Source of the DNA: an uncultured Bdellovibrionales bacterium
GTDB taxonomy: Bacteria > Patescibacteriota > Minisyncoccia > Moranbacterales > UBA1568
Direction: 5' to 3'
NCBI GenBank assembly: GCA_964436855.1
Contig: CAYTED010000001.1
Location: 64,129 to 128,128 of the forward strand
Length of the DNA: 64,000 nucleotides
The notes beneath the pieces are model-generated. The model did not search any database. It worked only from the letters and a program-made list of their open reading frames with translations, and was not told where the DNA came from. A program made the translations under genes and the position numbers. Shown here one piece after another: positions 1,460-28,149 of this stretch. Position 1 is the first letter of the stretch. Every line of letters begins with the position of its first letter.

Positions 1460-1494
1460 TAAAATGGCTAAGTTAAGCGAATAATTACGAACCG

Positions 1495-2583: not shown

Positions 2584-2642
2584 TTTTCCTTCTCCCTCCC
2601 TCTTCCAAAGAGAATAAAAGAAAAGGTTGTGATGAAAAGACT

Positions 2643-3758: not shown

Positions 3759-3778
3759 AAACAATAGAAATACTCTCT

Positions 3779-5421: not shown

Positions 5422-5427
5422 TCATAT

Positions 5428-6432: not shown

Positions 6433-6482
6433 ATTGTATACATTATCCGCACATACTTAAATGCTTCCTTTTTAAAAATATC

Positions 6483-9355: not shown

Positions 9356-9746
9356 AGCTCCAGAAGGAATGAGCGGAGAAGTTAATAACCGTAGTAATGA
9401 TTGCTACAATGATAATAACAAAAAGATCGTTAAGGTGAAGATACGATACTCCAAGATGCATAAGAAACAAACTGAGTATAGATGTCGAAAAAATCACCAC
9501 AAGAAAACGCGGAACTTGTGTGGTCACTTTTCCTGATGTCGCCTGAAAGGTCCAAATACGATTGATGCTAAAATTCCACACAATTGCCACACTCAATGAA
9601 ATTGTCCGACTCAAAAGGTAATATATATCACCATAACGAGTGAGCATGAAATAGATGGCTACATCGATAAGCAAAGCAATTCCGCCAGTGACGATAAACT
9701 TCACGAGACGTTGAAATGGAAATTTTTCAATAAGAGACCAGAGCAT
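9336..9746 (-). CDS. gtrA: GtrA-family small membrane protein (lipid-linked sugar translocation accessory)
   Basis: FIVTGGIALLIDVAIYFMLT and four short TM segments typical of GtrA-like proteins; start chosen at MLWSLIEKF; the track ORF extends to 9815. Confidence 0.65.
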   Translation of the reverse strand: MLWSLIEKFPFQRLVKFIVTGGIALLIDVAIYFMLTRYGDIYYLLSRTISLSVAIVWNFSINRIWTFQATSGKVTTQVPRFLVVIFSTSILSLFLMHLGVSYLHLNDLFVIIIVAIITTVINFSAHSFWSYASSKE

Positions 9747-9750
9747 TTTT

Positions 9751-10494
9751 TTAAAAAGCTTTTTTAGAAACAAAGCGGAATTTGAGGAATGTCCAGAGAG
9801 CAACAAAAAAATCACTGGCTCTTATTTTTTTTCCCTCCTTCACGGTTCGTGGATGATAAGAAATTGGAACCTCCATTATTCGTATGCCACTTCGAAGTAA
9901 TTTAGCAGTCAATTCATGATCTGTCTCAAATCCGAAAGTACGAATAGAAAAACTTTTTAAAATATGAGCCGGATATACTTTGTATCCTGTTAATGTATCT
10001 GTCATATATCGCCCATACAGAAAAAATACCCACAACGAAAGAAGGGCATTGGCAATATACGTAGCTATCGATTTATCCCTATGTTTTCCTAGAAGAAAAC
10101 CCCCCTCTTTTTCTTTTAATTCTCCAAGAATACGACTCCCATATATCGACAAAGATTGTGTATCACCTAAAAGCGGCTTTAAAAGAGGAATATAGTCATT
10201 CGGATCATACTCCAAATCCGCATCCTGAATAAGAATGTAGTCCCCTGTCGCTTTGGCCATCCCATATTTCGTGGCGGATCCTTTTCCACCATTTTCCTTA
10301 CGATAACACTGCACCTCTGGAAAACGCGAAGCGATTTCTGAAGTTCGGTCTTTTGAGCCATCATCTACCACGATAATTTCTCGCTCAAAACCGATTGATC
10401 GCAAATCGACTTTAAGAATAGTTTCGAGAAGCGTCCCGATAAACGCCTCTTCATTATACGCTGGAATAACGATTGATACTTTTGGCATACTCAA
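9751..10494 (-). CDS. GT2 polyprenyl-phosphate sugar synthase (dolichol-P-mannose synthase / GtrB-like)
   Basis: [11 protein letters not shown]...[12 protein letters not shown]...[10 protein letters not shown] pattern of DPM1/GtrB-like GT2 enzymes. Confidence 0.8.
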
Positions 10495-13303
10495 CTTTCA
10501 ATGATTTTTCTTTCCACACGGAATATTTCAACAATGTCCAAAGACATTTGATACCATCGAGAACCGTAATCTTCTTTCCCTCTTTGATCGTCCGAGCCTT
10601 ATAACTCACCGGCACTTCCAGAATAACATATTTTTTGCGTGCGATCTTGGCAATAAGTTCCATATCGAAATCGACGCCATTTCGAGTGAACTGCAAATCC
10701 CTGAAAATACGGGCATTGAAGCCCTTGAGGCTCGTGAGGGGGTCACCAACAAAGCGATGATAAATAACGAGCGTTAAAATACTCAATAGTGCCCCGCCAT
10801 ACTTGCTGATAAGATAAAGAAAGCCCTTCTCCCCATAAATTCGTTTCAAAGTTCCATTTAAATCATTCGTCCGGAATGCACGACTGCCAAAAACGACCGG
10901 GAATTCCTGATTTACGAGCGGTTGCACGACCCGAGCAATATCCGAGATAAGATATTCTGCATCGGAAGGAAAAAAGACAACGATATCCCCTTTCGCCTTT
11001 TCCAGACCAAGTCGTAACGCTTTTCCTCGACCTCCACTGGTACGATACACTCGTACGCCTGACTCCGCACTGGCAATTTCATAAGTCTTGTCCGAAGATC
11101 CTCCGTCAACAAAGATAATTTCTTTTTCCAAGGCAGTACCAGGAAAATGAAACCGCATCAGACCATGGAGAACACTTTTGACAGTCCGTTCTTCATTGAG
11201 CGCCGGAACAATAATCGAGACCTTTTGAGCAATATGGGCGACCTTTTTCTGCAGAGCTCCTTCAACAAGTAAAAGGAGTTCGGAAATCGTCTTACTTCCG
11301 GAATGTTTTCCTTTTTCCCCTTCCCAATCAATCCAGACAACTTTTTCCAATGGATACTCGAATGCCTTTGCATCAAAGGGAACGTAGGGGGTTTCCCCTG
11401 AAGCATTTGCTTCTGGTTTTTGGAAGAAAAACCGAGTCACCACATCCTGGCACTTCACTGCTCCATCTACCTTTCGACTCATATTAAAAAGAAATGCTCT
11501 CACGAGAGTCGTGGCATCTTCTCCAAGAATATCGTAGTCCCGCGCTATATTGGCAATAAAAATCTTTTCTGCACGGGTATTTTCCTGAATTGCTTCCGCG
11601 ATGCCCGACGTAAGATAAGAAGGCAGAAGTGATGAATATTGGGTTCCGGGTCCGTAAATAATGATATCCGCTTCCCGAAGCATTTTTTCCGCAACCGGAT
11701 TGATATCAGGAAGCGACTCTACATTTCGTAAGAGACGTATGTTATCAATCTTAAATCGACCGAGCGGATATTTTGCTTGATCAAGATACTCCGGTAAAAG
11801 AAAAATTTCCTGAATACGCGAATTATCCTGCGGTCCAACAATACTCGCCTCATCATACAAATATTTTCCATTCTCTTTCATTGCCACTAACACTCGATTA
11901 TCTCCATTTGTAATATTCAACACTCGATCACCAACTTCTGCAAAGAGAGAAAAGTTGGTTATGGCTTCATTGAAGTCCTCTCCGCTAGCGAGGTAGCACC
12001 CGGCAAAAAGGAGATTCCCAAAAGAGCAATCAGAAAATGTGAATTCCGGAAAGGAAACTATTCGTTGCTCATAATAGCGCAGGAATGCTTCAAGATACCG
12101 ACTCGCTTTCTTCGCCTGAATGAGTGCGAGTTTTTCCCTTAATACAAGAAGTTCGTGTGTAAGCTCATTGTGTTCTAAACTCACAAAGCTTCGCAATAGC
12201 AACAAAGCTTCATTTGTCCCTGTACCATCAGGAAGGCGATATTCAATCAGCTCATGCAACGCTTGCGAAGCGGTATCGGTCCTGACCTTCAGAAAGCGTG
12301 AGATATTTTTTCTGACATCAGAAGGACCAAGCATTCCTGGAATAAACCGGCGCAAAAGTCCGGTGGAGAGACCATCGTCGTACGTATTTACAAGGAGGGT
12401 AAGTTCGATATCGGGGTATTTCAGCAATGCCTCCGTAAGCGCCCCTGTCCCTCTCCCACCGGAAAACATCACTACTTTTAAATGCGCATTTGATTCTTTC
12501 ATACTCGTCATTAATGGATAAAATTCAAGAAGAGTAGCATCTGCATTATCATTGACGCCAACAGTCTCTTCAATACCCTCCAAGCGAAACGAAAGTACAC
12601 TTTCGTTTCCCGACTCAAAAAGTGGAAGCATCGGAAGAAAATTCCATTCCTTCGTAACCGGACTATATAAGATTCCTTTACTTTGCATGGAAGAGAAGAC
12701 TTCTTTCAGGCGAGATGAACGAAATGCAAAAACACCACAATCACTCTCACCGATAGCTGGCATTTTCTTACCCTCCCTTCTTTCATAAATGGATCGAAGA
12801 AGTCCGGAATGATCGCGCTCATAATGAACATACGGATCATTTCGAGAAACAAGAGGAAAAGAAAACTCCGTAGAGTGAGAATACTGTTGAATCCTCATCG
12901 TTCGATCTATGGTATCTTGTTGAATCGCGGCTTGGTCGCCCCAAATAATAAACGTGTATGGTGTGGAAATGAGTGGGATTCCCAAAGAAATAGCATCCGC
13001 CATTCCTTTTGGCTCATTTTGTATAACAATTTGATATTTCCCCTTCAACCTCCTCTCAAGATATGGTTCTACAGAAGCAACTCCTTGTGGAGAAAGAATA
13101 AAAATAAACGTTTTACATCGTGCCTCTAGACGATCGATAATCCAATCAAGAATCGGTCGTCCAGCCACTGGAAACAATATTTTTGGTTTTGAGTATCCCA
13201 AGCGACTCCCCCTTCCTGCTGCCGGAATAAGAGCCGTCCACTCATTTGCATCAGGATCTTGCTTATATCGTTCATCAACTTCATTGAGCGTGAGGATTTT
13301 CAT
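10454..13303 (-). CDS. Tri-domain fusion of 949 aa: N-terminal sugar/phospho-acid nucleotidyltransferase (NTP_transferase/MobA-like), central CofD/YvcK (UPF0052) family domain, C-terminal GT2 glycosyltransferase
   Basis: N-terminal [29 protein letters not shown] (G-x-G-x-R-L NTP-transferase loop). Middle [11 protein letters not shown]...[16 protein letters not shown] and [18 protein letters not shown] match the YvcK/CofD signature (compare YvcK GGGTG...ADDGGSSGRLR...GPGSLYTSI). C-terminal [11 protein letters not shown]...[12 protein letters not shown]...FFPSDAEY is a DPM1-like GT2. Confidence 0.8.
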
Positions 13304-13985
13304 ATGTCTCCCATTCCGAAAAAATCAATTCAATATCTGAAATTTTTTTTACAACAAAGTTTGCACCGGCCGTAAAAAGATCCTCCTCACTTTCCGTTCC
13401 AATAACCCCAACAACCCACATACCGGCATTTCTGCCTGCTCGAACGCCACTCGAAGCATCTTCAACCACTATACACCTCTCTGGCGCTATATCAAGCCTT
13501 TTTGTAGCTTCTTGATAGATTTCCGGTGAAGGTTTCGCTTCCTTGACCATAGACCCATCGAGAACAACAGAAAAGACATCGGAAAAACCACATTTTCGTA
13601 TAAAAAACTCCACAGTCTGTGGAGAAGCCGAAGAGACCAGTGCAAGACGGTATCTTTCCTGAAGAGCATGAACAAGCTGCTCGCTTCCAGGAGCTATTCT
13701 CCCTTCTGTTTCCAAGAGTTCGAGTGCCTTTTTCCGCTTTGCCGAAACAAGCACCCATAGCTCTTCAGAAGAAAATTTCCTCCCTCTTTCAGAAAGCACC
13801 TTGACCATTGCTTCGTCAGTCCGCATGCCGGCTACCGAAGCATATGAGAAATCACTTATCCCAATTTCATTCAATACTTCCCGATATGCTCGCTCATGAC
13901 AATCACTGGAAAGAAAAAGAACGCCATCCATATCGAATATCACCGCCTCGATATGCCCGAGATTATTTTTCATATTTTTGAGCAA
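13281..13985 (-). CDS. HAD-superfamily hydrolase (beta-phosphoglucomutase/phosphatase-like)
   Basis: IEAVIFDMDGVLF (DxDG motif I) and downstream HAD motifs; 23-nt overlap with the downstream fusion gene. Confidence 0.75.
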   Translation of the reverse strand: MLKNMKNNLGHIEAVIFDMDGVLFLSSDCHERAYREVLNEIGISDFSYASVAGMRTDEAMVKVLSERGRKFSSEELWVLVSAKRKKALELLETEGRIAPGSEQLVHALQERYRLALVSSASPQTVEFFIRKCGFSDVFSVVLDGSMVKEAKPSPEIYQEATKRLDIAPERCIVVEDASSGVRAGRNAGMWVVGVIGTESEEDLFTAGANFVVKKISDIELIFSEWETYENPHAQ

Positions 13986-14898
13986 CTATCCGCGATTGCC
14001 CGATCCAGTATTTGATAGGAAGCGATCCGAGACCAATTTTCTCGACTATTTTTCCGATATACTTGAAAAGAAAAAAGTGTTGTCTAGCCCGATACAACAC
14101 ATAACCCAATTCCAGGGTTTGCCAGTGCATTCCAATATCAACCACCTGAAAACCAGCTTTTCGAAGCTGTTTCCGAATAGTCTTCCTCGTATAGTACACC
14201 AAATGAACACTCAAAAGAAATGGCCATTTCCTCCCCAGAAGCCGTGCGGCAAAACTGCCAAAATCAGGGTAATTGACTACAAGCAATCCATCCGACTTTA
14301 AAATTCGATGTATCTCTTTGAGTTCAGCGCTTGGATCCGGAACATGTTCAATAACATCCCATAGCGTGACAAGATCGAATGTCGCATCCGGAAAAGAGTG
14401 ATCGAATAAAGTTCCCGTACGGACATCAAGATGATGTTTTGAGCGCGCGTATTCACTCAGCCATTTACTTGGCTCAATACCAATAGCCGATACCCCAAGT
14501 CCTTGAGCGGCACGAAGGAACGCTCCACCGGCACAACCAATATCCAACACCTTGGTATCATTGGAAAAACGCAAGTGAAATTTTTTTTGAAGCCATTGAA
14601 GTGCCGCAGTAAACGTCCGGATACGCATCAAATCTTGCTCCACGAAAGCCCTATCCTCTCCTTCAGCGTAAGAATCAACGATCATCTCTGAACGAAGACG
14701 AGGATTCAAATAAACAAGCCCGCACTTCGTGCACCGAACCACTTGTTCAAAAATCGTCTGATCGCTTGACGATCGATAGACTCTTGTCAGAAAATCTCTG
14801 GTCAAATTTTCTGGAAATCTTCCATGATACACTATCTGAAATTCCAAATGGGAACAAAGCGGACAAGCAATCGTCTCAAAAAAATCTTTCTGCTCCAT
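13963..14898 (-). CDS. Class I SAM-dependent methyltransferase with an N-terminal zinc-ribbon
   Basis: CPLCSH...CTKCG zinc ribbon followed by LDIGCAGGAFL motif I. Confidence 0.75.
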   Translation of the reverse strand: MEQKDFFETIACPLCSHLEFQIVYHGRFPENLTRDFLTRVYRSSSDQTIFEQVVRCTKCGLVYLNPRLRSEMIVDSYAEGEDRAFVEQDLMRIRTFTAALQWLQKKFHLRFSNDTKVLDIGCAGGAFLRAAQGLGVSAIGIEPSKWLSEYARSKHHLDVRTGTLFDHSFPDATFDLVTLWDVIEHVPDPSAELKEIHRILKSDGLLVVNYPDFGSFAARLLGRKWPFLLSVHLVYYTRKTIRKQLRKAGFQVVDIGMHWQTLELGYVLYRARQHFFLFKYIGKIVEKIGLGSLPIKYWIGQSRIVAQKYEK

Positions 14899-14944
14899 AC
14901 GTAATTTATCTTCAAAATATCCCGTTCATTATACTTTTTTGCCC

Positions 14945-16192
14945 TTAAAGAGGCAATGCGCTTCTTGCACCCTTCTCCATGTCCTTGAGAAATCTTCGAT
15001 AGTTCACTCCGAGAAAAACCAAAAGGCTAAGATTAAACACATACAAATAGAAGGCAGTGATCACAAAAAAACTCAATCCTTGAAGAAAAAGAATTCCCCC
15101 CACCATGAGTGCCAATGTATTGGCGAAAGCAAAGGCCAAAATTACGAAAGCATTTTTCTCTTGAGCAGAAAAAAAATTCGTAAAGTAAGTTTTAAAAGGA
15201 AAGAAAAAAACCAACGGAGATAATATCCACGCAAGCGACAAAGAGTCTGAATATTCCGAGCCATACACAAAAGGAAAGCATACGAATAAAAAGACTCCCA
15301 TAAAAAGAAAAGAGGCTATCCCTGAAAGAGAATTCCAGAAAAATATGCCTTGAAATGACTCTGTATCTCGAAACTCCTTAAAAAAATCTGGTAGTTTGAG
15401 GGCGATGAGCGCACCAAAATATGCTGAAAGAGCAGAAAGAGGAAAATAAGCAATTTGAAAAACCGCCACTAGCGAATATCCGAAAACAGCCCCAATAAGT
15501 ATGGGCGGAAGATTTTCCGTAAGATTCAAAAAAAATTTTTGACCCGTTACCGCAAGAGCATACCTAAAAGAAAAATCTTCTTTTTCGTTGTGATACCGAG
15601 ACTTTGCTTCAAAAAAGAACCAAACGGAAAAAATCGAGGTAACAGCAAAATAAACCGACACAATAAGAAGCAGATTGGCTCGAAAAAAAAGCAGGAGTAA
15701 CAACGCCAAAACCCATAAAAATGAAATGGATATCGATCGAAGAGCTACTGATCGAAATATCTTTTGACCCTCATAATAAGTATACCAAGGATTAAAACCG
15801 TAGAAGAAAGGAAAAAAGAAAGCAGCTACAAAAAAAGACTTCGCGACTTCCTCTGAAGAAAAATGCCATTGAAATATCCCGATACAAAAAAGAAGGATTG
15901 ATCCTATAAAACTCATTCGCAGCCCCATACGGACTGCTTGAGCTACTGATCCAAATGCTCCATGTACAACGCCTTTTAAGGCTGAAAAAGAAAGGCCTGG
16001 GAGTGAAAAAACGGAAACAAGCGCAACAATTGACAGCACATACTGAAAAGAACCATACGTTTCCTTATCCGACATCCTGGCAAATATGACGGAAACCAAA
16101 AAGCCCGCAAGCGATATAATTCCATAGCGAAACGAGATCCAAAAACCATTTCTCAAGACATGATTTCTCTCAAATTCATGAGCTACATCCAT
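14945..16192 (-). CDS. Polysaccharide biosynthesis/export protein (Wzx-like PST-family flippase)
   Basis: Polytopic membrane protein (~12 TM) with the N-terminal pattern of Wzx/PST flippases; sits in the glycan operon. Confidence 0.65.
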   Translation of the reverse strand: MDVAHEFERNHVLRNGFWISFRYGIISLAGFLVSVIFARMSDKETYGSFQYVLSIVALVSVFSLPGLSFSALKGVVHGAFGSVAQAVRMGLRMSFIGSILLFCIGIFQWHFSSEEVAKSFFVAAFFFPFFYGFNPWYTYYEGQKIFRSVALRSISISFLWVLALLLLLFFRANLLLIVSVYFAVTSIFSVWFFFEAKSRYHNEKEDFSFRYALAVTGQKFFLNLTENLPPILIGAVFGYSLVAVFQIAYFPLSALSAYFGALIALKLPDFFKEFRDTESFQGIFFWNSLSGIASFLFMGVFLFVCFPFVYGSEYSDSLSLAWILSPLVFFFPFKTYFTNFFSAQEKNAFVILAFAFANTLALMVGGILFLQGLSFFVITAFYLYVFNLSLLVFLGVNYRRFLKDMEKGARSALPL

Positions 16193-16199
16193 ATAAAAA

Positions 16200-17624
16200 T
16201 CACCTCTTCTTCAATGAAGGAAATATCCTCTGTAACACCTTTCTCACTTCACTCTGATTTTCGCCCCGTTTCACTAAGTGCTCAAGACTGACAAACACCG
16301 TATCTATGTCCATTGGGCAACATTCGTCATTTTTAAGAATAAAGACGTTTTCGGTTTTCGATTGAATGAGATTTTTTTTCTCGATATCCGTATAGAGCTC
16401 CTCCACGAGCTTTTCTCCCTTACGCAACCCGATCACACGGATTGCTACATCAGTTTCAGGAATAAGATTTTTTGAGCGAATCAGACAACGTGCAATATCA
16501 TCAATATTAATCAATTCCCCCATATTGAGGATATGGATCGCATTCGGCTTCGCAAATGCCGAACTTTCGATCACAAGCTGCGCCGCTTCCCGAATCGACA
16601 TAAAGAAGCGCATCATCTTTTTGTGCGTCACGGTTACATATTGATAGAGCATCATCTGACGTTCAAAGAGTGGGAGAACTGACCCATTGGAATTGATGAC
16701 ATTTCCGAATCGGACGATGTTAAACTTCGTCTTTCCTGACTTCAAGTGACGGATATAGTATTCGCAGAGCTTCTTCGTCGCTCCCATCACGCTCGTCGGA
16801 TTCACCACCTTGTCCGTCGAAATAAAAGTGAAATAGGGAACCTTCATTTCAATAGCAGTATCAATCACCCGCTTTGTACCGATAACATTATTGTAAACAG
16901 ACTCATCCACATTCTCCTGCATGAGATGTACGTGTTTGTACGCTGCTGCATGAAAAATCATATCCGGCTTGTATTCCGAAAAAAGCCGTTTCAACTTGTT
17001 GTCATGAAGAATACTCCCAACAACAAGCTCACATCGGTCCCGCATCCCCTGCTCCTTCAGTCGTTGTTCTAAAAGAAAGACGAGGTACTCCGAATTGTCA
17101 TATATCACCACTTTCCTCACCTCAAGATCAATCAACTGCCAGACGATTTCCGAACCGATAGATCCCGCGCCTCCGGTTACAAATACTGTTTTGCCACGAT
17201 AGAAGTTCTTCAGTTTTTCAACTCCTTTTCTCATAAACGGTCGACCAAGGAAATCTCCCGACTCGAGATCTCTGACCTCCACATACCGAACATCGCTCTT
17301 GCTGATAATACGCTGGTTTCGAGGAACAATTTTGAAAGGAATCCGAGTCTCCTCGTTTTCAAGTAAGATACTGCGAATCAACTTTCCATCTGTAGATGGA
17401 ATGGCGATGATCACCTCTTCTACATTATAAATGCCAAGCAGTTTTGGAAGATCGGAAATTTTTCCAAGAACGGATTTGTTATGCACAGCATCATCCACAA
17501 ACCCGATGACTTTCAGATCCTGATGATTCAACTTGATGTCTTGCGCAAGAAGCTTCCCTGCCCTTCCTGCGCCAACAATGATGATATTTTTTTCTTTCTT
17601 TTCAGTTAGCATATCACAGCACAC
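16200..17624 (-). CDS. Nucleoside-diphosphate-sugar 4,6-dehydratase/epimerase, CapD/PglF/WbpM-like
   Basis: N-terminal CoA-binding-like Rossmann (IIIVGAGRAGK) plus a second VFVTGGAGSIGSEI short-chain dehydrogenase domain, as in CapD/FlaA1/PglF. Confidence 0.8.
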   Translation of the reverse strand: MCCDMLTEKKEKNIIIVGAGRAGKLLAQDIKLNHQDLKVIGFVDDAVHNKSVLGKISDLPKLLGIYNVEEVIIAIPSTDGKLIRSILLENEETRIPFKIVPRNQRIISKSDVRYVEVRDLESGDFLGRPFMRKGVEKLKNFYRGKTVFVTGGAGSIGSEIVWQLIDLEVRKVVIYDNSEYLVFLLEQRLKEQGMRDRCELVVGSILHDNKLKRLFSEYKPDMIFHAAAYKHVHLMQENVDESVYNNVIGTKRVIDTAIEMKVPYFTFISTDKVVNPTSVMGATKKLCEYYIRHLKSGKTKFNIVRFGNVINSNGSVLPLFERQMMLYQYVTVTHKKMMRFFMSIREAAQLVIESSAFAKPNAIHILNMGELINIDDIARCLIRSKNLIPETDVAIRVIGLRKGEKLVEELYTDIEKKNLIQSKTENVFILKNDECCPMDIDTVFVSLEHLVKRGENQSEVRKVLQRIFPSLKKR

Positions 17625-19362
17625 CCTCCAGATTATTCCTGTAAAATTCCGCCGTTTTCAAAAGGCCCTCCTCCAGACTCCTTCTCGGCACTTTCTCCAA
17701 AATACCATATTTTGCCGCTTGTTCCACCACGCTTTCCCGGACATTTTGGTAAGAAATCTTCATTTTTGCCTTCAATACTCGCTCCTCAAGAACGGAAATA
17801 AGCCCTTCGATCGAGGTAAGCTCCCCGGAGCCGATGTCGAAGGTTCCGGTTAGACGATGTGCCAAAGCATATTCCACGAATCGAGAAATAGCCGGGGCAT
17901 ACACAAAATCACGCCTTGCCATCCGATCATGTATTTCCGTTTCCTTTCCAGCGAGAAAATTGCAGAGGAGATTTGCCACGAGACTCCCCCGACAGTACGG
18001 TCGCTGATACGGTCCGTATGTGTTGAAGAGACGAAAAAGAGTGAGTGGGATAGAATGCTTCTCACAGTATTGAACATAAAATCGCTCGAGTTCAATCTTG
18101 CGGCGTCCATAGTCAGAATTCGGATTCGCATACACAACCGCCGAAGAAAAAACAATAAGATGATGCCGCGACTGAATCCCCACATTGTTCACTAGACTCT
18201 CCTCTTCCTTAGCTATATCCCCCGGCTCAACGGAGTGATCAATAAGGTGAACGACAACATCCATATCCGTCTTCACCTGCTCGCGATACGGGTCAGCTCG
18301 AAGAAACACGTCCGATCGTTTCGTAAAAATCGAAAGCTTTCGTGCCACCGAAATACACTCGTTCCGTCCGGAAAAATATTCCGCAAGATTTCTCCCAACG
18401 AAACCCTCTCCCCCGAGAAAGAGGAATTTTTTTCCGGAAACTGAAGTGATTGGCTCCATCAAATCAACATTTTCTTGCGACAATGTTTGCACCTGTCGAT
18501 ATCGCTCATATGTTCTTCGAAGACCTTGCTCCAAATCCACCTTTGAGACAAAATGGTATTTTTCCCTTGCTTTTTCCACCGAAATACGGCTCTCTCGAAC
18601 CTCTTCCACTGGCACCCCGGTTATCCTATAAGGAATTTCTTTTCCTGCTATCGTGCTGATCCCATGAACCACATCCAACAGACTCGCGCTCCGACCAGTC
18701 GCGATATTGATCACATCATCCTTTTTGCAATGCTCTTTGATATTCAAGAGCGCAGAAACCACATCGTCGATAAAAATATAGTCGCGAAGCTGCTCCCCAT
18801 CGCCATTGATATTCAATATCTCCGGAGACTCCTCGAAAACTTTTCGAAAAACGAGCCCGATGAACCCTTTGTTTTTCTCCGAACCATACACATTGGAAAA
18901 TCGGAGAATACACAGTTGATGCTTTCCAGAAAGTTCTTTTTGAAGTAATACTTCGCACTCTGACTTAAACCGACTATATGAATCTATTGGTGAAAGCATT
19001 TGAGATTCTTCTGCTGATTCCTTGCAGTCTCCATACACAAGCACTGAAGAAGAAAAAAATATTCGTTTCTCAGGCAAGTCCTTCAGAACATCGATGATAT
19101 TTCGGATAATCCGTATCTCCGTTTCCGTATCAAAATCCCGATGGGCCTGTCCAAGAAAAATAAAAATATCTTCTCCTTCATTCAGTACTTTTTGAAGTAT
19201 TTCCGTATCGCGACTCGCATCAAGAGCTACTTCCTGTATTCCCGGAACATCTCCTTTGATACTCCTTGAAACAGAAACTACCTCCTCACCACACTGAACA
19301 AGCGTCTTTGCAAAGGCTGACCCAATAAACCCCGATCCACCAATCAATACCGTTTTCCGCAT
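17614..19362 (-). CDS. Tandem-fused double NAD-dependent sugar epimerase/dehydratase (two Rossmann SDR modules in one 582-aa protein)
   Basis: Two separate glycine-rich NAD motifs: VLIGGSGFIGSAF at the N-terminus and FLFLGGEGFVGRNL at ~aa 300, each followed by SDR-like YxxxK regions. Confidence 0.75.
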   Translation of the reverse strand: MRKTVLIGGSGFIGSAFAKTLVQCGEEVVSVSRSIKGDVPGIQEVALDASRDTEILQKVLNEGEDIFIFLGQAHRDFDTETEIRIIRNIIDVLKDLPEKRIFFSSSVLVYGDCKESAEESQMLSPIDSYSRFKSECEVLLQKELSGKHQLCILRFSNVYGSEKNKGFIGLVFRKVFEESPEILNINGDGEQLRDYIFIDDVVSALLNIKEHCKKDDVINIATGRSASLLDVVHGISTIAGKEIPYRITGVPVEEVRESRISVEKAREKYHFVSKVDLEQGLRRTYERYRQVQTLSQENVDLMEPITSVSGKKFLFLGGEGFVGRNLAEYFSGRNECISVARKLSIFTKRSDVFLRADPYREQVKTDMDVVVHLIDHSVEPGDIAKEEESLVNNVGIQSRHHLIVFSSAVVYANPNSDYGRRKIELERFYVQYCEKHSIPLTLFRLFNTYGPYQRPYCRGSLVANLLCNFLAGKETEIHDRMARRDFVYAPAISRFVEYALAHRLTGTFDIGSGELTSIEGLISVLEERVLKAKMKISYQNVRESVVEQAAKYGILEKVPRRSLEEGLLKTAEFYRNNLEGVL

Positions 19363-19419
19363 AATTTTCCTTTGTTAGAAGGATTTTTTGTATTATACTG
19401 TCAAAAGAATTCTTTGGAA

Positions 19420-21000
19420 ATGCCTAAATTTTTTCAAAAATCATCTTTTCTCCTGATATCCCTTCTTGTCCTTTTTACCGTAAAGGGTCTTTTGTTTACG
19501 ACTGCGATGCCGTTTTTTCAGAATCCGGACGAACAGGTACATTACGCCACCATACAACATCAAGCAGAGCCGCAAGATACAACGTGGCCAATAAAAAATA
19601 TTCGAATAAGCCAAGATCCTCGAAACATCAAAACCTACAATTTCTCCGATGAGCTTACCAAAGCGGCCATCGCCCTGAAGTTCGACGAGATTCATTTCGA
19701 AAAAGGAAACATACAACAGTTCTCGACCGGATCGGATATTGGACCGGAAGAGAATTCCCTTCTTTCAAGAACGCTTCCGCGCGTCATCGATACGCTTCCT
19801 GCAGCAGTCTCCGGAACCATATCATGGTATTACTTGATCGGTTCATATATCGAGCGCGCTCTCGGAGAAACGGATATATTCACCCGAATATTCGCCATTC
19901 GGATATTGTCTGTTATGCTCGGACTTCTCGTCATTTTTTTGGGATTCCGGATTGCGCACATTGTTGGATTTTCTCGCTTCGAGTCGATATGTATCACGAC
20001 ACTGCTCGTATTTCAACCGATGTTTGCCACATCGGCAGCGCAAGTGAATATCGACATCGCGCTCATTTTTTCATTTTCATTGTTCGTATATGCTGGAGTA
20101 TCGTTACTCACAATTTCGAAGTTATGGATCCCGGGTCAAGCCCGGGATGACAAACAGTGGATCAAAATGACAGGATACAGCATTCTCGCGGTACTCGCGG
20201 CCATATTCGGGTTCTATGCCAAGGGTCCGGGGATCGTACTCGTCGCTATGCTCTTTCCGCTCTTCGCATACGTTATCTGGAAATACTTTTCCTTCGATAC
20301 CAAAAAATACCTCCTGTCCCTCGCTGTGATAGGAATAATCAGTATCAGATGCATTTTTGTTTTTTTCCCGCAGTATCTCGCAAATATCACCGCGTCAGGT
20401 AATGTTTCGAAATTCTCCTCACCGGTCGTTTCGCTCTCGAAATATACTGAAAAAACTTTTGATATCGGGGAATTCCGTGAAACCGCCCTTTCCTATTGGG
20501 GAAATTTCGGCTGGCTCGATACAAGAATCAGGGAGGTGGTGTTTGAGATAATTTGGATAGTGGAAATTGTCGGATTGATCGGATTCGTGTGTTTTTTTGT
20601 TCCATGGCAAAGATTTCTCGGCTTCGCCCGCCTTTGGCGAAGTTCCACTCGAAATGACAAGTTAAGAAAAATTATTGAATACTTCGCACAAAATCGTGAT
20701 TTCCTCCCGAAAAAACGATACTTTATTCTCTTTCTCGCTATGGCAATCGCACTCCAACTCGCGATTCGTTTCTACGACTGGCGCATTTTCGATACCACCG
20801 GAAAAATCCTCATCGGCACACCTGGACGCTACTTTCTTCCAAATGTCATTGGGCATATCATTCTCCTTATCACCGGACTTGGGTTTTTCCTTCGGTCACG
20901 CGCACAATTCCATGTTCTCCTAAAGTCCCTCGTCATTATCTTTATCCTCCTAAACATATATATATTCCTCGATGTTATCATTCCACGATACTACCTGTAA
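19420..21000 (+). CDS. Polytopic membrane protein, putative GT-C-like glycosyltransferase (PMT/ArnT-like DE motif in the first loop)
   Basis: Many TM helices; NPDEQVHY motif in the first extracytoplasmic loop; divergent from the glycan operon; start set at MPKFF. Confidence 0.55.
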   Translation: MPKFFQKSSFLLISLLVLFTVKGLLFTTAMPFFQNPDEQVHYATIQHQAEPQDTTWPIKNIRISQDPRNIKTYNFSDELTKAAIALKFDEIHFEKGNIQQFSTGSDIGPEENSLLSRTLPRVIDTLPAAVSGTISWYYLIGSYIERALGETDIFTRIFAIRILSVMLGLLVIFLGFRIAHIVGFSRFESICITTLLVFQPMFATSAAQVNIDIALIFSFSLFVYAGVSLLTISKLWIPGQARDDKQWIKMTGYSILAVLAAIFGFYAKGPGIVLVAMLFPLFAYVIWKYFSFDTKKYLLSLAVIGIISIRCIFVFFPQYLANITASGNVSKFSSPVVSLSKYTEKTFDIGEFRETALSYWGNFGWLDTRIREVVFEIIWIVEIVGLIGFVCFFVPWQRFLGFARLWRSSTRNDKLRKIIEYFAQNRDFLPKKRYFILFLAMAIALQLAIRFYDWRIFDTTGKILIGTPGRYFLPNVIGHIILLITGLGFFLRSRAQFHVLLKSLVIIFILLNIYIFLDVIIPRYYL

Positions 21001-21024
21001 TCAAATGACAAGAGATAGAGGGCT

Positions 21025-21720
21025 ATGAAAGTACAACTCAGCCAAAATAAAATACTCCTCGCAGCACTCCTCATTGGAACGATTTTTCTTTTCATTCGAT
21101 TCTTTAGCTATCTCTCCTTTCCGGAATCGGACTACAACTTTCTTGGCAAAGATAAGAAAGTAAAACTTGATCCAAAAACAAGCATCATGCAGATATTCGA
21201 AGCAAAGGAAAACGGACTCGATCAAATAAAAATCGTTATGGGAAATATCGATAGACTCCCCCTCAATGAATCTGTCCTGCTTGAGCTTCGCGACCCTCAA
21301 TGCGAACAGGTACTCGCAGAAGATACAATAAATTGGCTCACCGAAAGTCCAAAAATATACTATCGCTTCCGATTCCCCCGCATCGACGATTCAATCGGGA
21401 AAAAATATTGCCTAAAAATTTCCTACGAAGCGAATACAAAAAGAGGCGGCGAACGCCCCTCAATCGCCGTAAGTGACGACGACCAATTTTCTGATCGCGC
21501 CTATACCGATACATCAAACGGAAAAACCTACATTGGGAGAACCCTTCAAATAAGACCTTCCTATTCCGAAGGCTCCCTCACAGGAAACCTCATTCGACTT
21601 GAAAATCGCCTTTCACAATATAAGCCTGAATTCATAAAGGGTTGGATACTCACAATCGGATTTCTGATGATTCTTGGAAGTGTATTGCTTGGAATCATCG
21701 TGATCCGAACAAAAGAATAG
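21025..21720 (+). CDS. Hypothetical protein with N- and C-terminal TM anchors
   Basis: ORF with a hydrophobic N-terminus (LLAALLIGTIFLFI) and C-terminus (ILTIGFLMILGSVLLGIIVI); no recognisable motif. Confidence 0.45.
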   Translation: MKVQLSQNKILLAALLIGTIFLFIRFFSYLSFPESDYNFLGKDKKVKLDPKTSIMQIFEAKENGLDQIKIVMGNIDRLPLNESVLLELRDPQCEQVLAEDTINWLTESPKIYYRFRFPRIDDSIGKKYCLKISYEANTKRGGERPSIAVSDDDQFSDRAYTDTSNGKTYIGRTLQIRPSYSEGSLTGNLIRLENRLSQYKPEFIKGWILTIGFLMILGSVLLGIIVIRTKE

Positions 21721-21723
21721 CTC

Positions 21724-22383
21724 TTACTTCTGTATCACTATTGAAAACCCATTACCGACTTTGTCATCGATATCCTCTACTTCGACAATATTCCAGCCGA
21801 GATGCGTGATAAGTTCAATCATATCTTCAGTAATCCATACGGAATAATGGTCATTCTTGTTTGGCTGCGCAACAATTTTTCCTTCATGACGATCGAGAAG
21901 TTCCTGCAAGGTGGTTCTCGGAAAATCCCTATCAAATGTCCGTTCTTTGTGCGGAACGATCATAAAAATATACCCTCCCGGTCGCACAATTCGATACCAT
22001 TCTTTGAGCGCTTTAATCGGATCCGGAAAATGCTCGATCACATGAGCACTTACTACAAAATCTTCACTTTCATCCGGAAGCGGAATAGCGTCTCCGGATG
22101 CGAGAATGTCAACCGAAAGCACCTCTCCTACATTCGCCGACTCCATCTTCTTGTACTGGTTGTCATCTGGCGTATAATCAACATTTCGAGTATTGAGACC
22201 GAAAGGATTGTGCGCCGATCCGCCAATTTCAATCCCCTTCTTACCCTTCAAATATTTATGCGCGAGATTGCTCTCCGGAAACTTCACATGGAACATTCGT
22301 TTGAACGCATTATAAGGAGTAAAAATCCACTTCGGCACCAATGGTTTTATATAGCGTATATATATCTCTCGCAACAAACCCAT
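21724..22383 (-). CDS. Class I SAM-dependent methyltransferase
   Basis: IEIGGSAHNP (motif I variant) and VVSAHVIEHFPDP...LKPGGYIF, typical of Methyltransf_11-type proteins. Confidence 0.7.
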   Translation of the reverse strand: MGLLREIYIRYIKPLVPKWIFTPYNAFKRMFHVKFPESNLAHKYLKGKKGIEIGGSAHNPFGLNTRNVDYTPDDNQYKKMESANVGEVLSVDILASGDAIPLPDESEDFVVSAHVIEHFPDPIKALKEWYRIVRPGGYIFMIVPHKERTFDRDFPRTTLQELLDRHEGKIVAQPNKNDHYSVWITEDMIELITHLGWNIVEVEDIDDKVGNGFSIVIQK

Positions 22384-22410
22384 ACTATTGAATACCTTAT
22401 TTTTTTCAAC

Positions 22411-22845
22411 TCACGAAGTCTTTCGAAGTTTAATGGAAGTCCCTATTATTTTTGCTAAAGAAAAAGCGATAAAAACCGTGTAGAGAATAACCAGTACCAG
22501 AAAATCAAACGCGCCTTGCGCTACCCCGCCGAAACCGCTCTGCTGATGCATACCATTCTGCAAGAAAGTGACAATCACAATCACCGGAACAAACCATCGC
22601 GCAAATCTCCACCAAGCCTGAAAAACCTCGTCTCGCATTTTGTAGGTAAGAAGAACAGGAAAAAACAATAGTAAGAAGAAATTAACAAATATCAAACTCA
22701 TCAATTCAGGAAATTTATCAAAACAGCCTTCATAGTCCCCAAATGTATATGAATTAACACAAAATTTAAAAAGGGTAGGATTATCAAAAATATATGCTAA
22801 TAATCCAGAAAAAACAGAGAATAATAATATATTTTTCTTTGTCAT
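22411..22845 (-). CDS. Small integral membrane protein, hypothetical
   Basis: Four hydrophobic segments; immediately downstream of the giant secreted protein gene. Confidence 0.45.
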   Translation of the reverse strand: MTKKNILLFSVFSGLLAYIFDNPTLFKFCVNSYTFGDYEGCFDKFPELMSLIFVNFFLLLFFPVLLTYKMRDEVFQAWWRFARWFVPVIVIVTFLQNGMHQQSGFGGVAQGAFDFLVLVILYTVFIAFSLAKIIGTSIKLRKTS

Positions 22846-22849: not shown

Positions 22850-25800
22850 TTAATAACTTATTTTTATATAACCTTTATTTGTTTCTAACTTGAGTACTTT
22901 CAACCCAGCTCTCTCCTCACTCATCACCAACACATTTTCTTCCCTCTTGATCGTTGTTTCATTCTCCTTCGTCAGATAATGAGCATTTATCTGAAGCAAA
23001 TCCGTAACAGCAAGTTCATTCAGCATTTTAACACTTCCATTCTTTTCAAGCGACCATTCATAATGTAAAGAGGCCGGAAGAGAGAAGCTGGCACTCTCTC
23101 CATCATACGCAAGCGACTTCAACAAAAATTTGATCTGCTTTCCATCCTCATTCTTTTCAAAAATGGTCTCCGCGACATGTCCCGCCTCATCGATTGCTCG
23201 AGCAGTTATTTCAGAAACTTCCGTGGTGACCGGAGAAACACTATCGCTCCCGATGATAACAAGCATTTTCGACTCCGGATCAAATGCAAAAGAAAATTCC
23301 GGATCAGACACATCTATCTTGATCATTTCTTCTTTCACATCCTCCTTGTTCCCCTGTTTATCGGTAGAAAAATACTGAAAAGAAGTCACTCCTTCCTGGG
23401 AAAGAATAATCGGTTTAACATAGTCCTGCCATGTTTTCCCACCATCAAGAGAGTACTCTATTTTTTCAACACCACTCCCATTTTCATTATCTTGAGCAGA
23501 AAGAGTAACGGTAACATCGCTCGTGTACCATCCATTCTCTCCCTCCGTTCCGGAGAGAGTGCTGCTCGTCGTTGGCGAAGTCACATCAGGCAATACCGTC
23601 TCTCCAATCTTCGACTGAAATGAGAAATCGTCGTACCCATCACCATCATAGTCCACATGAAGCAGAGAAGCGTTGGAAATAGTTCCGTTCGGAAAATCCA
23701 TACGCACTTCCGTATCCGCAGAAGTCGGAACACCGGAGAAGGTCGTCTCGGCTGATACGATTCCATTTTCTATTTCCTGTACCTCAAGCGTGAACGATCC
23801 CTCCGCTTCACCGTCCAAAAGAAGCGTCGGGTGAGCCGAAGCAGGAAGGGAAATATACTGCACTTCACCAAAGTTTCGATATTCCGCTCCAGGAATATCA
23901 GAAACGGAGGCGTTCACCATGTTTCCAGCCTCATCTCGCGCAGAAAGCGCAAGCGGTGAATGGAGGAAATATCGAAGACGCTTTTCTGAAGTTCTTGATG
24001 GATAGATATCTGAAATAAATTTTGGAAAAGTTGAAGATATTTGAGTAAGAATGTTTTCTTTAATAAAAGCCCGTAATTGAGGAACTTCTAAAATATCCGC
24101 ATGCTTTCTCTTCAGAGTAAAGGAAAGATCTTCATAACCCTTCAAATCCACCCACCATCTCGAAACACCTGGAATACTCTCATTCATCGCCAAGGCACTC
24201 GGCGCCACCACCGTTCCATCACCATCAACCACCATATCCGGTGTATATTCGAGCTTCGGGGAGAGTTCACGGCATTGGCCGATCACTGACCGCTTCGTGC
24301 AATCCATTCCTGTCCAATATTTCACCGATCCGACCGTATCTTCTCCGAATCCAGCGATCTGATACACGGAAACACCACTCGGCGGACTCCAATAATCCAG
24401 AAGCGTGTCATGCATCGCTTCACTCTCATTAAACAGCTTCGTATTGATCACACTCGGACGTTCCAGCTCAACAGAATCAGCCGAAACTTTTCCATCGCTA
24501 TCATTCAAAAACACTTTCAATGTGGAAAAATCATCTATCTTGTCGCCATATTTTTCTCTATACGATTGCGTCGCATCCCCATCATCAAACGTAATCACCG
24601 GACTCATCACCGCACTTCCCCATCCGGAAAAATACGCCTTCGATGGCAATAGTCCATACGCACTTGGCATATCCTGCGCCAAAGTGCGAGCCACGCGATG
24701 TGAAAGAGCAAAAGGCATCCAGTTGACCGGCAATCCCTGATCATACCCGTGCAAAATCGCGCCAATCGCCTGCGGTGTCCCAGACTGCGGCACTGCCACA
24801 AATACGATCTTATCAATCAAATCCGCTGCTTCAGCACCAAGTTTCGACACCAAAGCCTTTGTTACTAACCCACCATTCGAATGAGCGATGATCGTCACCT
24901 TGCCCGTCCTCGAACTCGCCGCCAACCGACGCAATTCTTCCACTATATATGGTGTACTTGTCGGTGCTCCATACGAAATCCGATCACCATCCTTCGCTCC
25001 GCTATTGACGACATCTTCCACTGACAGTCGCCAATCATACGGCACCACCGCATAATCATTCATAATCCCATCGACACTCTTCCAATGCTCAAGATCTTCA
25101 AGAAATGACTTATATACATTCCCCTTCACTGAAACATACGCGTTATCGATTACATCCTTCGTATAAATCCCCGACCGAGTACTCCGCCCATTTGCATCGA
25201 GATACAGTTTCTCCGCATCTTCATCTTTCTCCGGTTCCCACAATCGCGCTTCACTATTCTCTGCCGATTCATACAATCGGCTCGCCTCTACGCCCGGAAA
25301 GAACAGGACATTCGAAAAACATTGCTCCGTACATCCATCTGCAAATGGATCCTTCCCAAGCCATGGCTGAAAAGCCACTCCATCTACTACGCTATTTCCT
25401 TTTCCTTCCAAATTCGCGACCCCGGGATATGTCCACCCACTATACACTCCTTGTTTATAGTACGGTCCACTCGCATCACCCCACCAATTATTCGTAGCAA
25501 AAAGCTTCGTTTCTTGTTGCCAACCCACAAAACCATCTATATACACTCCTCGTTGATTTCGAGCAATACTATTGTTCGCAATGATGAGATTTTGCCCAGA
25601 AAAATATCCTGTCAAATTGATACCTATTCCATTTTCCGTAACAGTATTATGTTCAAAAACAGGTTTTGCGCCGTATCCAAAAGTAACTCCTCCATATGAT
25701 CCATATCGCATTTCAGAATATTGAACACTGGTGTTTGAAGAAAATATTACCAATCCAGCTTCAAGTGGATTGGCCGCGGCATACAGAAATTTTACATGTT

Positions 25801-26191
25801 CTATGGTTCCTTTTCCGGTTTTTGGAATCATGACATACCTCCAATCCCCAGGATTCGGTACAGTCAAGCTTCCATCATTATTCGTATCCCCACCAAAGCT
25901 ATCATCCTGAAAAGAAGTGAAAACAATCTCTTCCGCTTCCGTTCCAACGGCCGTCAAAGAAGCAAATGATAACAAGGTACTTTTTTTCTGCATTTTCACC
26001 ACCACTCCGGGCTCAATCGTTACCGGCGTAGAAATATACAATCCATAATCAACAACAAGATACGGACTTCCCGCTTTTGTCCAAACACTTGGAACGGGTT
26101 TCCCGTATTGTATTTCCGTCGCCGCAGAAACATCTTTCACATAAAAAAACATCCCCAACACAATGAAAGGAAGGAGGATAATTCTTTTCAT
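22850..26191 (-). CDS. Giant secreted multi-domain protein: signal peptide, right-handed beta-helix region, LCAT-like alpha/beta-hydrolase (lipase/phospholipase) domain, C-terminal Ig-like repeats
   Basis: N-terminal MKRIILLPFIVLGMFFYVKDVSA signal peptide; NNSIARNQRGVYIDG beta-helix repeat; VVPYDWRLS plus TIIAHSNGG (GHSxG nucleophile elbow) match the LCAT family; GSGVEKIEYSLDGGKTWQDY and similar Ig-like modules. Confidence 0.8.
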   Translation of the reverse strand: MKRIILLPFIVLGMFFYVKDVSAATEIQYGKPVPSVWTKAGSPYLVVDYGLYISTPVTIEPGVVVKMQKKSTLLSFASLTAVGTEAEEIVFTSFQDDSFGGDTNNDGSLTVPNPGDWRYVMIPKTGKGTIEHVKFLYAAANPLEAGLVIFSSNTSVQYSEMRYGSYGGVTFGYGAKPVFEHNTVTENGIGINLTGYFSGQNLIIANNSIARNQRGVYIDGFVGWQQETKLFATNNWWGDASGPYYKQGVYSGWTYPGVANLEGKGNSVVDGVAFQPWLGKDPFADGCTEQCFSNVLFFPGVEASRLYESAENSEARLWEPEKDEDAEKLYLDANGRSTRSGIYTKDVIDNAYVSVKGNVYKSFLEDLEHWKSVDGIMNDYAVVPYDWRLSVEDVVNSGAKDGDRISYGAPTSTPYIVEELRRLAASSRTGKVTIIAHSNGGLVTKALVSKLGAEAADLIDKIVFVAVPQSGTPQAIGAILHGYDQGLPVNWMPFALSHRVARTLAQDMPSAYGLLPSKAYFSGWGSAVMSPVITFDDGDATQSYREKYGDKIDDFSTLKVFLNDSDGKVSADSVELERPSVINTKLFNESEAMHDTLLDYWSPPSGVSVYQIAGFGEDTVGSVKYWTGMDCTKRSVIGQCRELSPKLEYTPDMVVDGDGTVVAPSALAMNESIPGVSRWWVDLKGYEDLSFTLKRKHADILEVPQLRAFIKENILTQISSTFPKFISDIYPSRTSEKRLRYFLHSPLALSARDEAGNMVNASVSDIPGAEYRNFGEVQYISLPASAHPTLLLDGEAEGSFTLEVQEIENGIVSAETTFSGVPTSADTEVRMDFPNGTISNASLLHVDYDGDGYDDFSFQSKIGETVLPDVTSPTTSSTLSGTEGENGWYTSDVTVTLSAQDNENGSGVEKIEYSLDGGKTWQDYVKPIILSQEGVTSFQYFSTDKQGNKEDVKEEMIKIDVSDPEFSFAFDPESKMLVIIGSDSVSPVTTEVSEITARAIDEAGHVAETIFEKNEDGKQIKFLLKSLAYDGESASFSLPASLHYEWSLEKNGSVKMLNELAVTDLLQINAHYLTKENETTIKREENVLVMSEERAGLKVLKLETNKGYIKISY

Positions 26192-26269
26192 GAATGTAAT
26201 ATTATCTTTATTACTATTAAAAAGTATATAAAAGAAAGTATAAAAAAACAAAACCTAGGTTTACACCAT

Positions 26270-26761
26270 TTACTCACCATCCTCAATATCTAACCGAGAA
26301 ACATCATACTGATCAAATTCTTTGCGCCATTTTTGATAGTACCATTCGGCTTTTTCAGGAAGTTCGCCGCTTTCACGGGCGAGTTTCGCTTCGGCCTCGG
26401 TCGCGTACTTGAAAAAATCCCGTTCCGCGAGTCGCGATTCAAGCTCGTCCCAAAATTCGTCCTCAAGAAATCGATTCATCACTTCATCCACTTTTTTTGA
26501 AAATGTTTCGGACGGAACTATTTTGTCGCGCCACTTCCGCGCAAGAGAAGAGAGTTTCGATTGTTCAATCTGTCCCCAGATACGGTCCGCTGCCGTCTTC
26601 GCAAGCTCTGTCTTATCCTTTCGAAGCTCACCCTCCTTTTCACGAACCCAAAGCCCGAGCTCAACCAAAAGAAGAAGCTCCTCCATTTCATCTTTCGAAA
26701 GCTCGAGACGCATCGGAATTTCATTGAGCCACTTCGGCTGCACGGTTAAAAGATTTTTCAT
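26270..26761 (-). CDS. Hypothetical acidic protein
   Basis: 163-aa ORF downstream of uvrC on the same strand; charged/helical composition; no motif recognised. Confidence 0.5.
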   Translation of the reverse strand: MKNLLTVQPKWLNEIPMRLELSKDEMEELLLLVELGLWVREKEGELRKDKTELAKTAADRIWGQIEQSKLSSLARKWRDKIVPSETFSKKVDEVMNRFLEDEFWDELESRLAERDFFKYATEAEAKLARESGELPEKAEWYYQKWRKEFDQYDVSRLDIEDGE

Positions 26762-26807
26762 AAATAAAAAAATAAAAGATACCCCTAGCCTACCCGAAAA
26801 AAATCAT

Positions 26808-28088: not shown

Positions 28089-28149
28089 TTGACTTTTTAT
28101 ATAATTTGTAGTATATTATCAATATTGTACCTCAACAAGGAGGAGAGAA

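Follow-up and report, generated by a model that had tools for sequence, protein, structure and literature searches.

The keto product of a 4,6-dehydratase needs reduction or transamination to yield a stable sugar, and in several described bacterial systems (WbpM with WbpV or WbpK in Pseudomonas aeruginosa, WreV with WreQ in Rhizobium etli, and Pdeg with Preq in Bacillus cereus) the dehydratase gene is linked to, or overlaps with, the gene of an extended short-chain dehydrogenase/reductase (SDR), without an aminotransferase. In B. cereus the Pdeg and Preq genes overlap, and Preq is an NADPH-dependent 4-reductase making uridine diphosphate (UDP)-D-N-acetylquinovosamine (UDP-D-QuiNAc). In Pseudomonas, which sugar is made probably depends on the variable reductases beside the conserved WbpM; UDP-D-N-acetylfucosamine (UDP-D-FucNAc) is the assumed product of WbpK, and WbpV is reportedly proposed, in the literature on P. 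aeruginosa O6, to give D-QuiNAc. The B. cereus work also showed very little similarity among the known 4-reductases (Preq, WreQ, and that of P. aeruginosa O6), and since the class is polyphyletic no sequence signature exists for it. Here we describe a gene coding for two SDR modules in tandem, found in a stretch of 64,000 nucleotides (hereafter the window) of contig CAYTED010000001.1, from an assembly deposited as an uncultured Bdellovibrionales bacterium. It also adjoins a dehydratase gene, but differs from the dehydratase and 4-ketoreductase pairs in that two unrelated SDR modules share one polypeptide and in that the dehydratase has no membrane anchor. The modules are likened to Preq, WreQ, and WbpV by gene context, not by sequence comparison.

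Two extended-SDR nucleotide-sugar domains are likewise joined by gene fusion in one chain in the trifunctional UDP-rhamnose synthase RHM of plants and algae (PMC8987622). In RHM, however, the N-terminal domain is a 4,6-dehydratase and the C-terminal one a 3,5-epimerase/4-reductase acting in strict sequence, whereas neither domain of the window fusion appears to be a dehydratase; there is no close sequence relationship between the two, and halves of the window type each occur alone in the same gene slot. Malonyl-CoA reductase is another bacterial polypeptide with tandem SDRs (SDR1-2 and SDR3-4), although these are classical SDRs that reduce an acyl-CoA and one member of each pair has no working pocket, whereas both window modules keep full catalytic sets. 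The tandem architecture of extended SDRs is thus recurrent and not unique to the family described here.

From its motifs, the fusion seems to consist of two complete, catalytically competent extended-SDR nucleotide-sugar oxidoreductases on a short flexible linker. Judging from the contents of the same slot in related loci, the two halves (here called the N-type and C-type modules) seem to be interchangeable partners of a single dehydratase rather than consecutive steps of a pathway; the functions that we assign to them are inferred from motifs and gene context.

Two complete modules in one polypeptide

Two Epimerase (PF01370) stretches were found by a Pfam scan of the whole 582-aa protein, a two-domain match far above chance level, and each half taken alone covers nearly the entire profile of 240 positions (residues 1-299, E=1.4e-26, profile 3-240; residues 300-582, E=6.7e-19, profile 4-239). 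The dinucleotide-binding signatures GGSGFIGSAF and GGEGFVGRNL are located at residues 8-17 and 317-326, and the catalytic Ser and YxxxK motif were located in both halves (Table 1), confirming an initial annotation which had proposed two complete Rossmann signatures, each with an SDR catalytic region, in a genuine tandem fusion. A search of 5.8 billion proteins retrieved full-length relatives in ~29 clusters (569-621 aa, 38-49% identity, query coverage 98-99%), below which the scores fall sharply to single-domain proteins. One of these relatives, HLC48957.1, is deposited as Candidatus Andersenbacteria and others come from metagenome-assembled genomes (MAGs) of Moranbacteria or Patescibacteria; within the named records, this small family is restricted to Patescibacteria-type MAGs.

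Short-read MAG assemblies can in principle merge adjacent genes, the only point in favor of an assembly or frameshift artefact, which we find almost inconceivable here. The identical 582-aa open reading frame (ORF) was called in a second, independent assembly (Logan SRR12229868), the ~29 clusters that keep the architecture at 38-49% identity come from many samples, and no sampled locus (see below) has separate N-type and C-type genes side by side that could have been merged. Conservation across clusters and recovery in two assemblies also answer the frameshift-merged pair of genes against which the initial annotation had cautioned. Aligned with each other, the two halves share only 22% identity (E=0.06), which rules out a recent internal duplication as the origin of the fusion and indicates that two different SDR lineages were joined.

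Across the family the linker varies from 0 to 25 residues, 6 being the commonest length. An AlphaFold2 (AF2) model built on the family alignment gave two confident domains, with a mean predicted local distance difference test (pLDDT) of 89.9, and a disordered linker (pLDDT <50 at residues 296-305); given this linker and a whole-model predicted template modelling score (pTM) of 0.55, we make no claim on the inter-domain arrangement. An intramolecular pseudo-dimer was considered from the model and set aside on the same two grounds.

Residue conservation was followed in alignments of 59 N-type domains (29 fused and 30 free-standing) and 134 C-type domains (31 fused and 103 free), together with the 27 full-length relatives. 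The catalytic Ser, Tyr, and Lys are intact and invariant in both halves. Invariant among the full-length relatives are also the substrate-domain residues N157 and R193-D194 of the N-half and R444, N447, and R484-D485 of the C-half, and in the C-type glycine-rich motif G317, G318, G320, G323, R324, and N325 do not vary in the 31 fused copies. The C-half has all the hallmarks of an extended SDR: GxxGxxG, catalytic Ser, YxxxK, and a complete two-lobed fold. Nucleotide-sugar SDRs are normally dimeric and malonyl-CoA reductase provides examples of tandem SDRs in which one member is inert, so one half might be a non-catalytic pseudo-dimer mate, as are SDR2 and SDR4 of that enzyme. We consider this very improbable, since neither catalytic set varies: both halves retain the cofactor motif, the R-D pair of the substrate domain, and the catalytic Ser, Tyr, and Lys, and in their catalytic set are indistinguishable from free-standing enzymes. 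The degenerate half that the initial annotation had contemplated is therefore not what the alignments contain.

In sugar-nucleotide dehydratases (RmlB, GMD, Pdeg, PseB, and PglF among them) the catalytic Ser/Thr is directly followed by an acid/base pair, giving signatures of the type [ST]DE, [ST]DK, [ST]SE, or TDK (PMC8987622). The corresponding positions read S106-V-L in the N-half and S407-A-V in the C-half. L108 is invariant in the 27-sequence alignment and nearly so over the 59 N-type domains, V409 is Val in 29/31 fused and 72/103 free C-type copies, and neither position is ever D, E, or K. Lacking the acid/base pair, neither half is predicted to be a dehydratase, and the N-half was discarded as a candidate 4,6-dehydratase on this motif. 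The combination given as an example in the initial annotation, a 4,6-dehydratase plus a 3,5-epimerase/4-reductase, does not hold either, as the acid/base pair is missing from both halves and the dehydratase is a separate gene downstream.

The cofactor-binding region also carries information. An acidic residue at the end of beta2 binds the NAD ribose and is typical of epimerases with permanently bound NAD+, and as a heuristic for SDRs, the lack of this residue together with a nearby basic one indicates NADP(H) preference. The best solved relative of the N-half profile is the Thermotoga maritima GalE structure 4zrm (E=7e-36). The acidic residue of the GalE type is absent from the N-half, where S32-R33 align to Asp-Asn of 4zrm; position 32 is occupied by Ser, Ala, or Gly in 29/29 fused and 26/30 free domains, and position 33 is R/K in 28/29 and 24/30, respectively. 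In all 31 fused copies of the C-type module, position 324 within the glycine-rich motif is Arg, and among the free copies it is R/K in 96/103. These NADP(H)-type features would fit reductases better than NAD+-retaining epimerases.

Among described enzymes, the best sequence and fold matches of the N-type (template modelling score ~0.83) are GalE-type 4-epimerases (T. maritima TM0509, i.e., 4zrm, MoeE5, and the UDP-N-acetylglucosamine (UDP-GlcNAc) 4-epimerase of Pseudomonas protegens), which share with it the "SS(A/V)LVYG" around the catalytic Ser. The N-type differs from them in the replacement of the NAD-ribose-binding Asp by Ser/Ala/Gly followed by Arg, and in having a dehydratase as its sole genomic partner. 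Against NCBIfam, the N-half scored below the curated cut-offs for GalE (TIGR01179, 80.5 bits, cut-off 262.3), RmlB (77 vs. 365), RmlD (TIGR01214, 29.8 vs. 224), and the GDP-fucose synthase type (NF047922, 39.3 vs. 500). The C-half reached 14.9 bits against the same GalE model, gave no match to TIGR01214 or NF047922, and had as its best hit the compact N-terminal SDR domain of the Cap5F/WbjC/WbcJ UDP-2-acetamido-2,6-dideoxy-L-arabino-hex-4-ulose reductase (NF047837), with 46.3 bits against a cut-off of 500 and coverage of only profile positions 2-184 of 372. Unlike this reductase, the C-type has no cupin domain and its partner dehydratase is of the retaining PglF type, not of the inverting FnlA/CapE type. 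The C-half profile matched PDB entries mainly via the substrate-binding lobe, Cap5F chains being among them (E=2e-10). An NCBIfam equivalog identity was rejected for both halves, all matches lying far below the curated cut-offs.

Table 1. Positions of the tandem-SDR gene, its motifs, and the surrounding features, numbered from the first letter of the window.
Feature	Position	Strand	Remarks
Tandem-SDR gene	17614..19362	(-)	582 aa; stop TGA at 17614-17616
N-type extended-SDR module	18493..19362	(-)	residues 1-290; GalE-like by sequence; NADP(H)-type beta2 end S32-R33
N-type glycine-rich dinucleotide-binding motif, G8-G-S-G-F-I-G14	19321..19341	(-)	invariant in 27 full-length relatives and 59 N-type domains
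N-type catalytic Ser pair S105-S106, then V107-L108	19045..19050	(-)	Ser invariant across alignments
N-type YxxxK, Y129-S-R-F-K133	18964..18978	(-)	Y and K invariant in 59/59 N-type domains
Inter-domain linker	18442..18492	(-)	residues 291-307
C-type compact extended-SDR module	17617..18441	(-)	residues 308-582
C-type motif G317-G-E-G-F-V-G-R324-N325	18388..18414	(-)	Arg within glycine-rich motif, an NADP(H)-type feature
C-type catalytic Ser pair S406-S407, then A408-V409	18142..18147	(-)	Ser invariant across alignments
C-type YxxxK, Y418-G-R-R-K422	18097..18111	(-)	Y and K invariant in 134/134 C-type domains
PglF/WbpM-type UDP-GlcNAc 4,6-dehydratase, soluble	16200..17612	(-)	470 aa from ATG at 17612
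Wzx-type flippase (Polysacc_synt)	14945..16192	(-)	by Pfam; conserved downstream member
PMT/ArnT-type GT-C glycosyltransferase	19372..21000	(+)	PF02366; divergent from the fusion; conserved in most loci
231-aa membrane protein	21025..21720	(+)	no Pfam match; hydrophobic C-terminus
Promoter-like site TTTCCA-17-TATAAT	19392..19420	(-)	upstream of the fusion ATG; consensus match only
949-aa triple fusion	10454..13303	(-)	same glycan operon
1133-aa protein	22850..26251	(-)	hydrophobic N-terminus
UvrC-like gene	26808..28088	(-)	
Second 582-aa ORF	26409..28157	(+)	antisense to the UvrC-like gene; probably spurious

The gene slot upstream of the dehydratase

As initially annotated, the fusion is the first gene of a minus-strand string and adjoins a CapD/PglF-like dehydratase. 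A single base separates its stop codon from the ATG of the dehydratase (TGAtATG), with GGAGG just upstream, an arrangement from which the dehydratase gene is predicted to be translationally coupled to the fusion. The dehydratase matches Polysacc_synt_2 with 304 bits (Pfam) and carries the TDK...Mx3K motif typical of retaining UDP-GlcNAc 4,6-dehydratases of PglF/WbpM type, with STDK at T264-D-K266 and M276-G-A-T-K280. No 19-residue segment of it exceeds a Kyte-Doolittle value of 1.6, i.e., no membrane anchor was detected; in WbpM the N-terminal anchor is dispensable for activity (PMC8987622).

We mapped N-type, C-type, CapD-like, Wzx, PMT-type, and 231-aa genes in 23 fetched loci, several of them on short contigs. 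The common arrangement has the 231-aa and PMT-type GT-C genes reading in one direction and, divergent from them, a slot (X) followed by the CapD-like and Wzx genes, although a few loci lack some members. Slot X contains an N-C fusion in eight loci (L001-L005 and L093-L095), seven of them distinct, L001 being the window's own locus from another assembly and L004 and L095 near-identical; a C-N fusion in one (L091); a C-type gene alone in nine (L006-L009, L092, and L096-L099); and an N-type gene alone in five (L010-L014). Separate N-type and C-type genes were not found together in any of the 23. A UDP-GlcNAc 4,6-dehydratase is the sole partner-type enzyme to which the modules are linked: the CapD-like gene is present in 21/23 loci, the remaining two contigs being too short, and it lies immediately downstream of X in 20, the order in L008 being CapD-like, glycosyltransferase family 2 (GT2), and C-type. 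Members of the fusion family have been automatically annotated as "UDP-glucose 4-epimerase" or "NAD-dependent epimerase/dehydratase," which is probably wrong because of this genomic context, in which both module types probably serve the UDP-GlcNAc 4,6-dehydratase.

The N-only locus L011 is gene-for-gene collinear with the window, both having in the same order a large beta-helix protein, a methyltransferase, the 231-aa protein, PMT, X, the CapD-like dehydratase, Wzx, a methyltransferase, a HAD protein, and a nucleotidyltransferase. Neither an aminotransferase nor a second reductase was found within 7 kb in L011, and no aminotransferase appears in the sampled N-only loci. By the similarity of the PMT-type and 231-aa proteins, L011 and the C-only L096 are the closest loci to the window, ahead of the other fused ones, which indicates that slot X changes its content rapidly even among close relatives. 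The "channelled two-step conversion" suggested initially is hard to reconcile with collinear loci that hold in this slot either the N-type or the C-type alone, and each half therefore looks self-sufficient rather than one step of a pair.

Free-standing relatives of both modules are common. The C-half profile retrieved ~90 proteins of 270-300 aa with 40-56% identity. The free N-type genes were missed by a word-indexed search with the whole fusion and were found only by an exhaustive HMMER search of 1.84 billion representatives, which gave many proteins of ~295 aa (e.g., P0263 with 371 bits and P0030 with 297 bits) and ~5 fused representatives at 50% clustering. With hidden Markov models specific to each half, 27 free N-type and 108 free C-type proteins reached at least 200 bits, and a scan of GTDB genomes with the N profile yielded only four close loci, the remainder being generic GalE-like. 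The best free relative of the window N-half is 48% identical and the best fused one 46%, the values for the C-half being 55 and 54%. Fused and free N-domains are interleaved in a quick neighbor-joining tree, whose long branches make it not robust. The same module types also occur fused in reverse order, C then N, in P0261 (567 aa; L091 164..1867), directly upstream of a 470-aa CapD-like gene, pointing to two or more independent fusion events.

This interleaving of fused and free forms, both in the tree and in nearest-neighbor identities, together with the ability of either type alone to fill the slot in close relatives (L011 and L096), would be expected if the N-type and C-type were a redundant isofunctional pair, i.e., analogous 4-reductases giving the same product, with the fusion as a transitional stage of non-orthologous displacement. 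We think this decidedly unlikely. The fused state has been kept over deep divergence (38-49% identity across the ~29 clusters) with all catalytic residues invariant, unexpected for a transitional copy, and an independent fusion in reverse order exists.

Also among the hits of the same searches were about a dozen unrelated proteins, 586-761 aa long and each with two generic extended-SDR domains (P0035, P0301, P0311, P0316, P0321, P0322, P0327, P0331, P0335, P0337, P0346, and P0336), P0035 having two full PF01370 matches; tandem SDR fusions have thus arisen repeatedly in other lineages. The initial description of the architecture as uncommon is apt for the present family, which is small, but not beyond it, given the reverse-order pair, these unrelated tandem proteins, plant RHM, and malonyl-CoA reductase. 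We found in the literature no description of the fusion family, of bacterial tandem nucleotide-sugar SDRs, or of QuiNAc pathways in bacteria of the candidate phyla radiation (CPR).

Many of the loci have an extra, ordinary epimerase of ~320 aa, distinct from the N-type and of NAD+ type ("LDN" after beta2), at L002 2862..3812, L003 231..1196, L005 3741..4700, L007 4952..5938, and L013 3127..4083. The L007 protein (328 aa) was considered as an unfused N-half and rejected, since it has the NAD+-type "LDNL" and shares 27% identity with the N profile. Its affinity is with the extra epimerases of the other loci. No equivalent was present among the window ORFs scanned (38..7682 and 7691..22845). The MAGs with the closest N-only loci (L011, L013, and L015) are labelled uncultured Bdellovibrionales and all the other named relatives Patescibacteria/CPR; the Bdellovibrionales label may be a taxonomic mislabel or may reflect a transfer.

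Parallel or consecutive action of the two halves

In the explanation that we favor, the N-type and C-type modules would each reduce the C4 keto group of the dehydratase product with NADPH, independently and in parallel, and would probably differ in stereochemical outcome, e.g., one giving UDP-D-QuiNAc and the other UDP-D-FucNAc, by analogy with the outcomes proposed for WbpV and WbpK beside WbpM. The fused form would let a single locus supply two 6-deoxy-N-acetylhexosamine (6-deoxy-HexNAc) sugars for a surface glycan dependent on Wzx and GT-C, and would represent the "both cassettes" state of a rapidly swapping slot instead of a channelled two-step enzyme. We hold parallel action of the halves with different products only tentatively, at somewhat less than an even chance. 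The broader proposal, that CPR bacteria swap, lose, or fuse stereo-divergent 4-ketoreductase cassettes in one slot, the fused form being a bifurcating enzyme, is possible but doubtful.

The main competitor, an amended version of the two-step conversion suggested initially, is a sequential enzyme in which reduction of the 4-keto intermediate falls to one module, probably the C-type, while the other, the GalE-like N-type, epimerizes, acting on the substrate pool, on the reduced product (e.g., UDP-QuiNAc to UDP-FucNAc), or at C3/C5 of the keto sugar, with fusion favoring the hand-over of the intermediate. The best solved matches of the N-type profile are indeed 4-epimerases, the linkers are short, the two types co-occur in the 23 sampled loci only as fusions, and the existence of both fusion orders is a Rosetta-stone sign of coupled function. 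Nevertheless, we regard this explanation as rather unlikely. Loci with the N-type or the C-type alone are collinear in their remaining genes and lack any other enzyme that could act on the 4-keto sugar, and a UDP-GlcNAc 4-epimerase acting upstream of a 4,6-dehydratase would be pointless because the keto product loses the C4 stereochemistry. In addition, the N-type is devoid of the acidic residue at beta2 that epimerases holding NAD+ tightly typically have, and the AF2 model has no confident inter-domain packing, with its pTM of 0.55 and disordered linker.

Several points weigh against parallel action. That the two types are found fused in either order is a classic sign of proteins working together in one pathway or complex, and would suit a sequential or heteromeric model no less well. 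The functions of both module types are read entirely from motifs and context, their NCBIfam matches are all far below the curated cut-offs, and the rule of acidic versus basic residues at beta2 is a heuristic from general SDR knowledge. The argument of self-sufficiency assumes that the missing type is not encoded elsewhere in the N-only and C-only genomes, the census comprises 23 loci, some on short contigs, and among the C-only loci L009 has a DegT aminotransferase as well.

The surrounding glycan locus

The ~231-aa membrane protein is always paired with the PMT-type gene, the pair being divergent from slot X in most loci. Promoter-like sites in the region are as numerous as expected by chance, and the one upstream of the fusion is weak evidence. 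No Rfam family reached its gathering score in the 64-kb window, tRNA included. The GC skew of the window is negative in every 2-kb bin, and the minus strand holds most of the long ORFs.

Further along the same operon, after a HAD hydrolase and a methyltransferase, a 949-aa protein combines a MobA/IspD-like nucleotidyltransferase (residues 24-142), a CofD-family domain (2-phospho-L-lactate transferase-like, 277-608), and a GT2 domain (696-821). L002 encodes the same fusion (969 aa). The locus L007 has instead two proteins, a 265-aa nucleotidyltransferase and a 686-aa protein with CofD and GT2, and the nucleotidyltransferase of L011 (269 aa) is separate too. A CofD-like domain is unusual within a surface-glycan locus. 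On the other side of the fusion, the 1133-aa protein has beta-helix, LCAT (lecithin:cholesterol acyltransferase-like), and DUF7379 matches and may be a secreted or surface lipase-like protein; its position is held in the collinear L011 by a 1115-aa ORF. The second ORF of 582 aa, overlapping the UvrC-like gene, is probably spurious because the gene caller of the Logan assembly called only UvrC.

Were the two halves to make different products, the locus would be a simple model for the diversification of surface glycans by cassette exchange in CPR bacteria with reduced genomes, and the fusion a natural reductase pair for making rare UDP-6-deoxy-HexNAc sugars. If instead they give the same product, the locus would capture a non-orthologous displacement in progress. 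Should the bifurcating enzyme prove true, it would provide these ultra-small bacteria with a compact, serotype-like switch for surface-glycan diversity.

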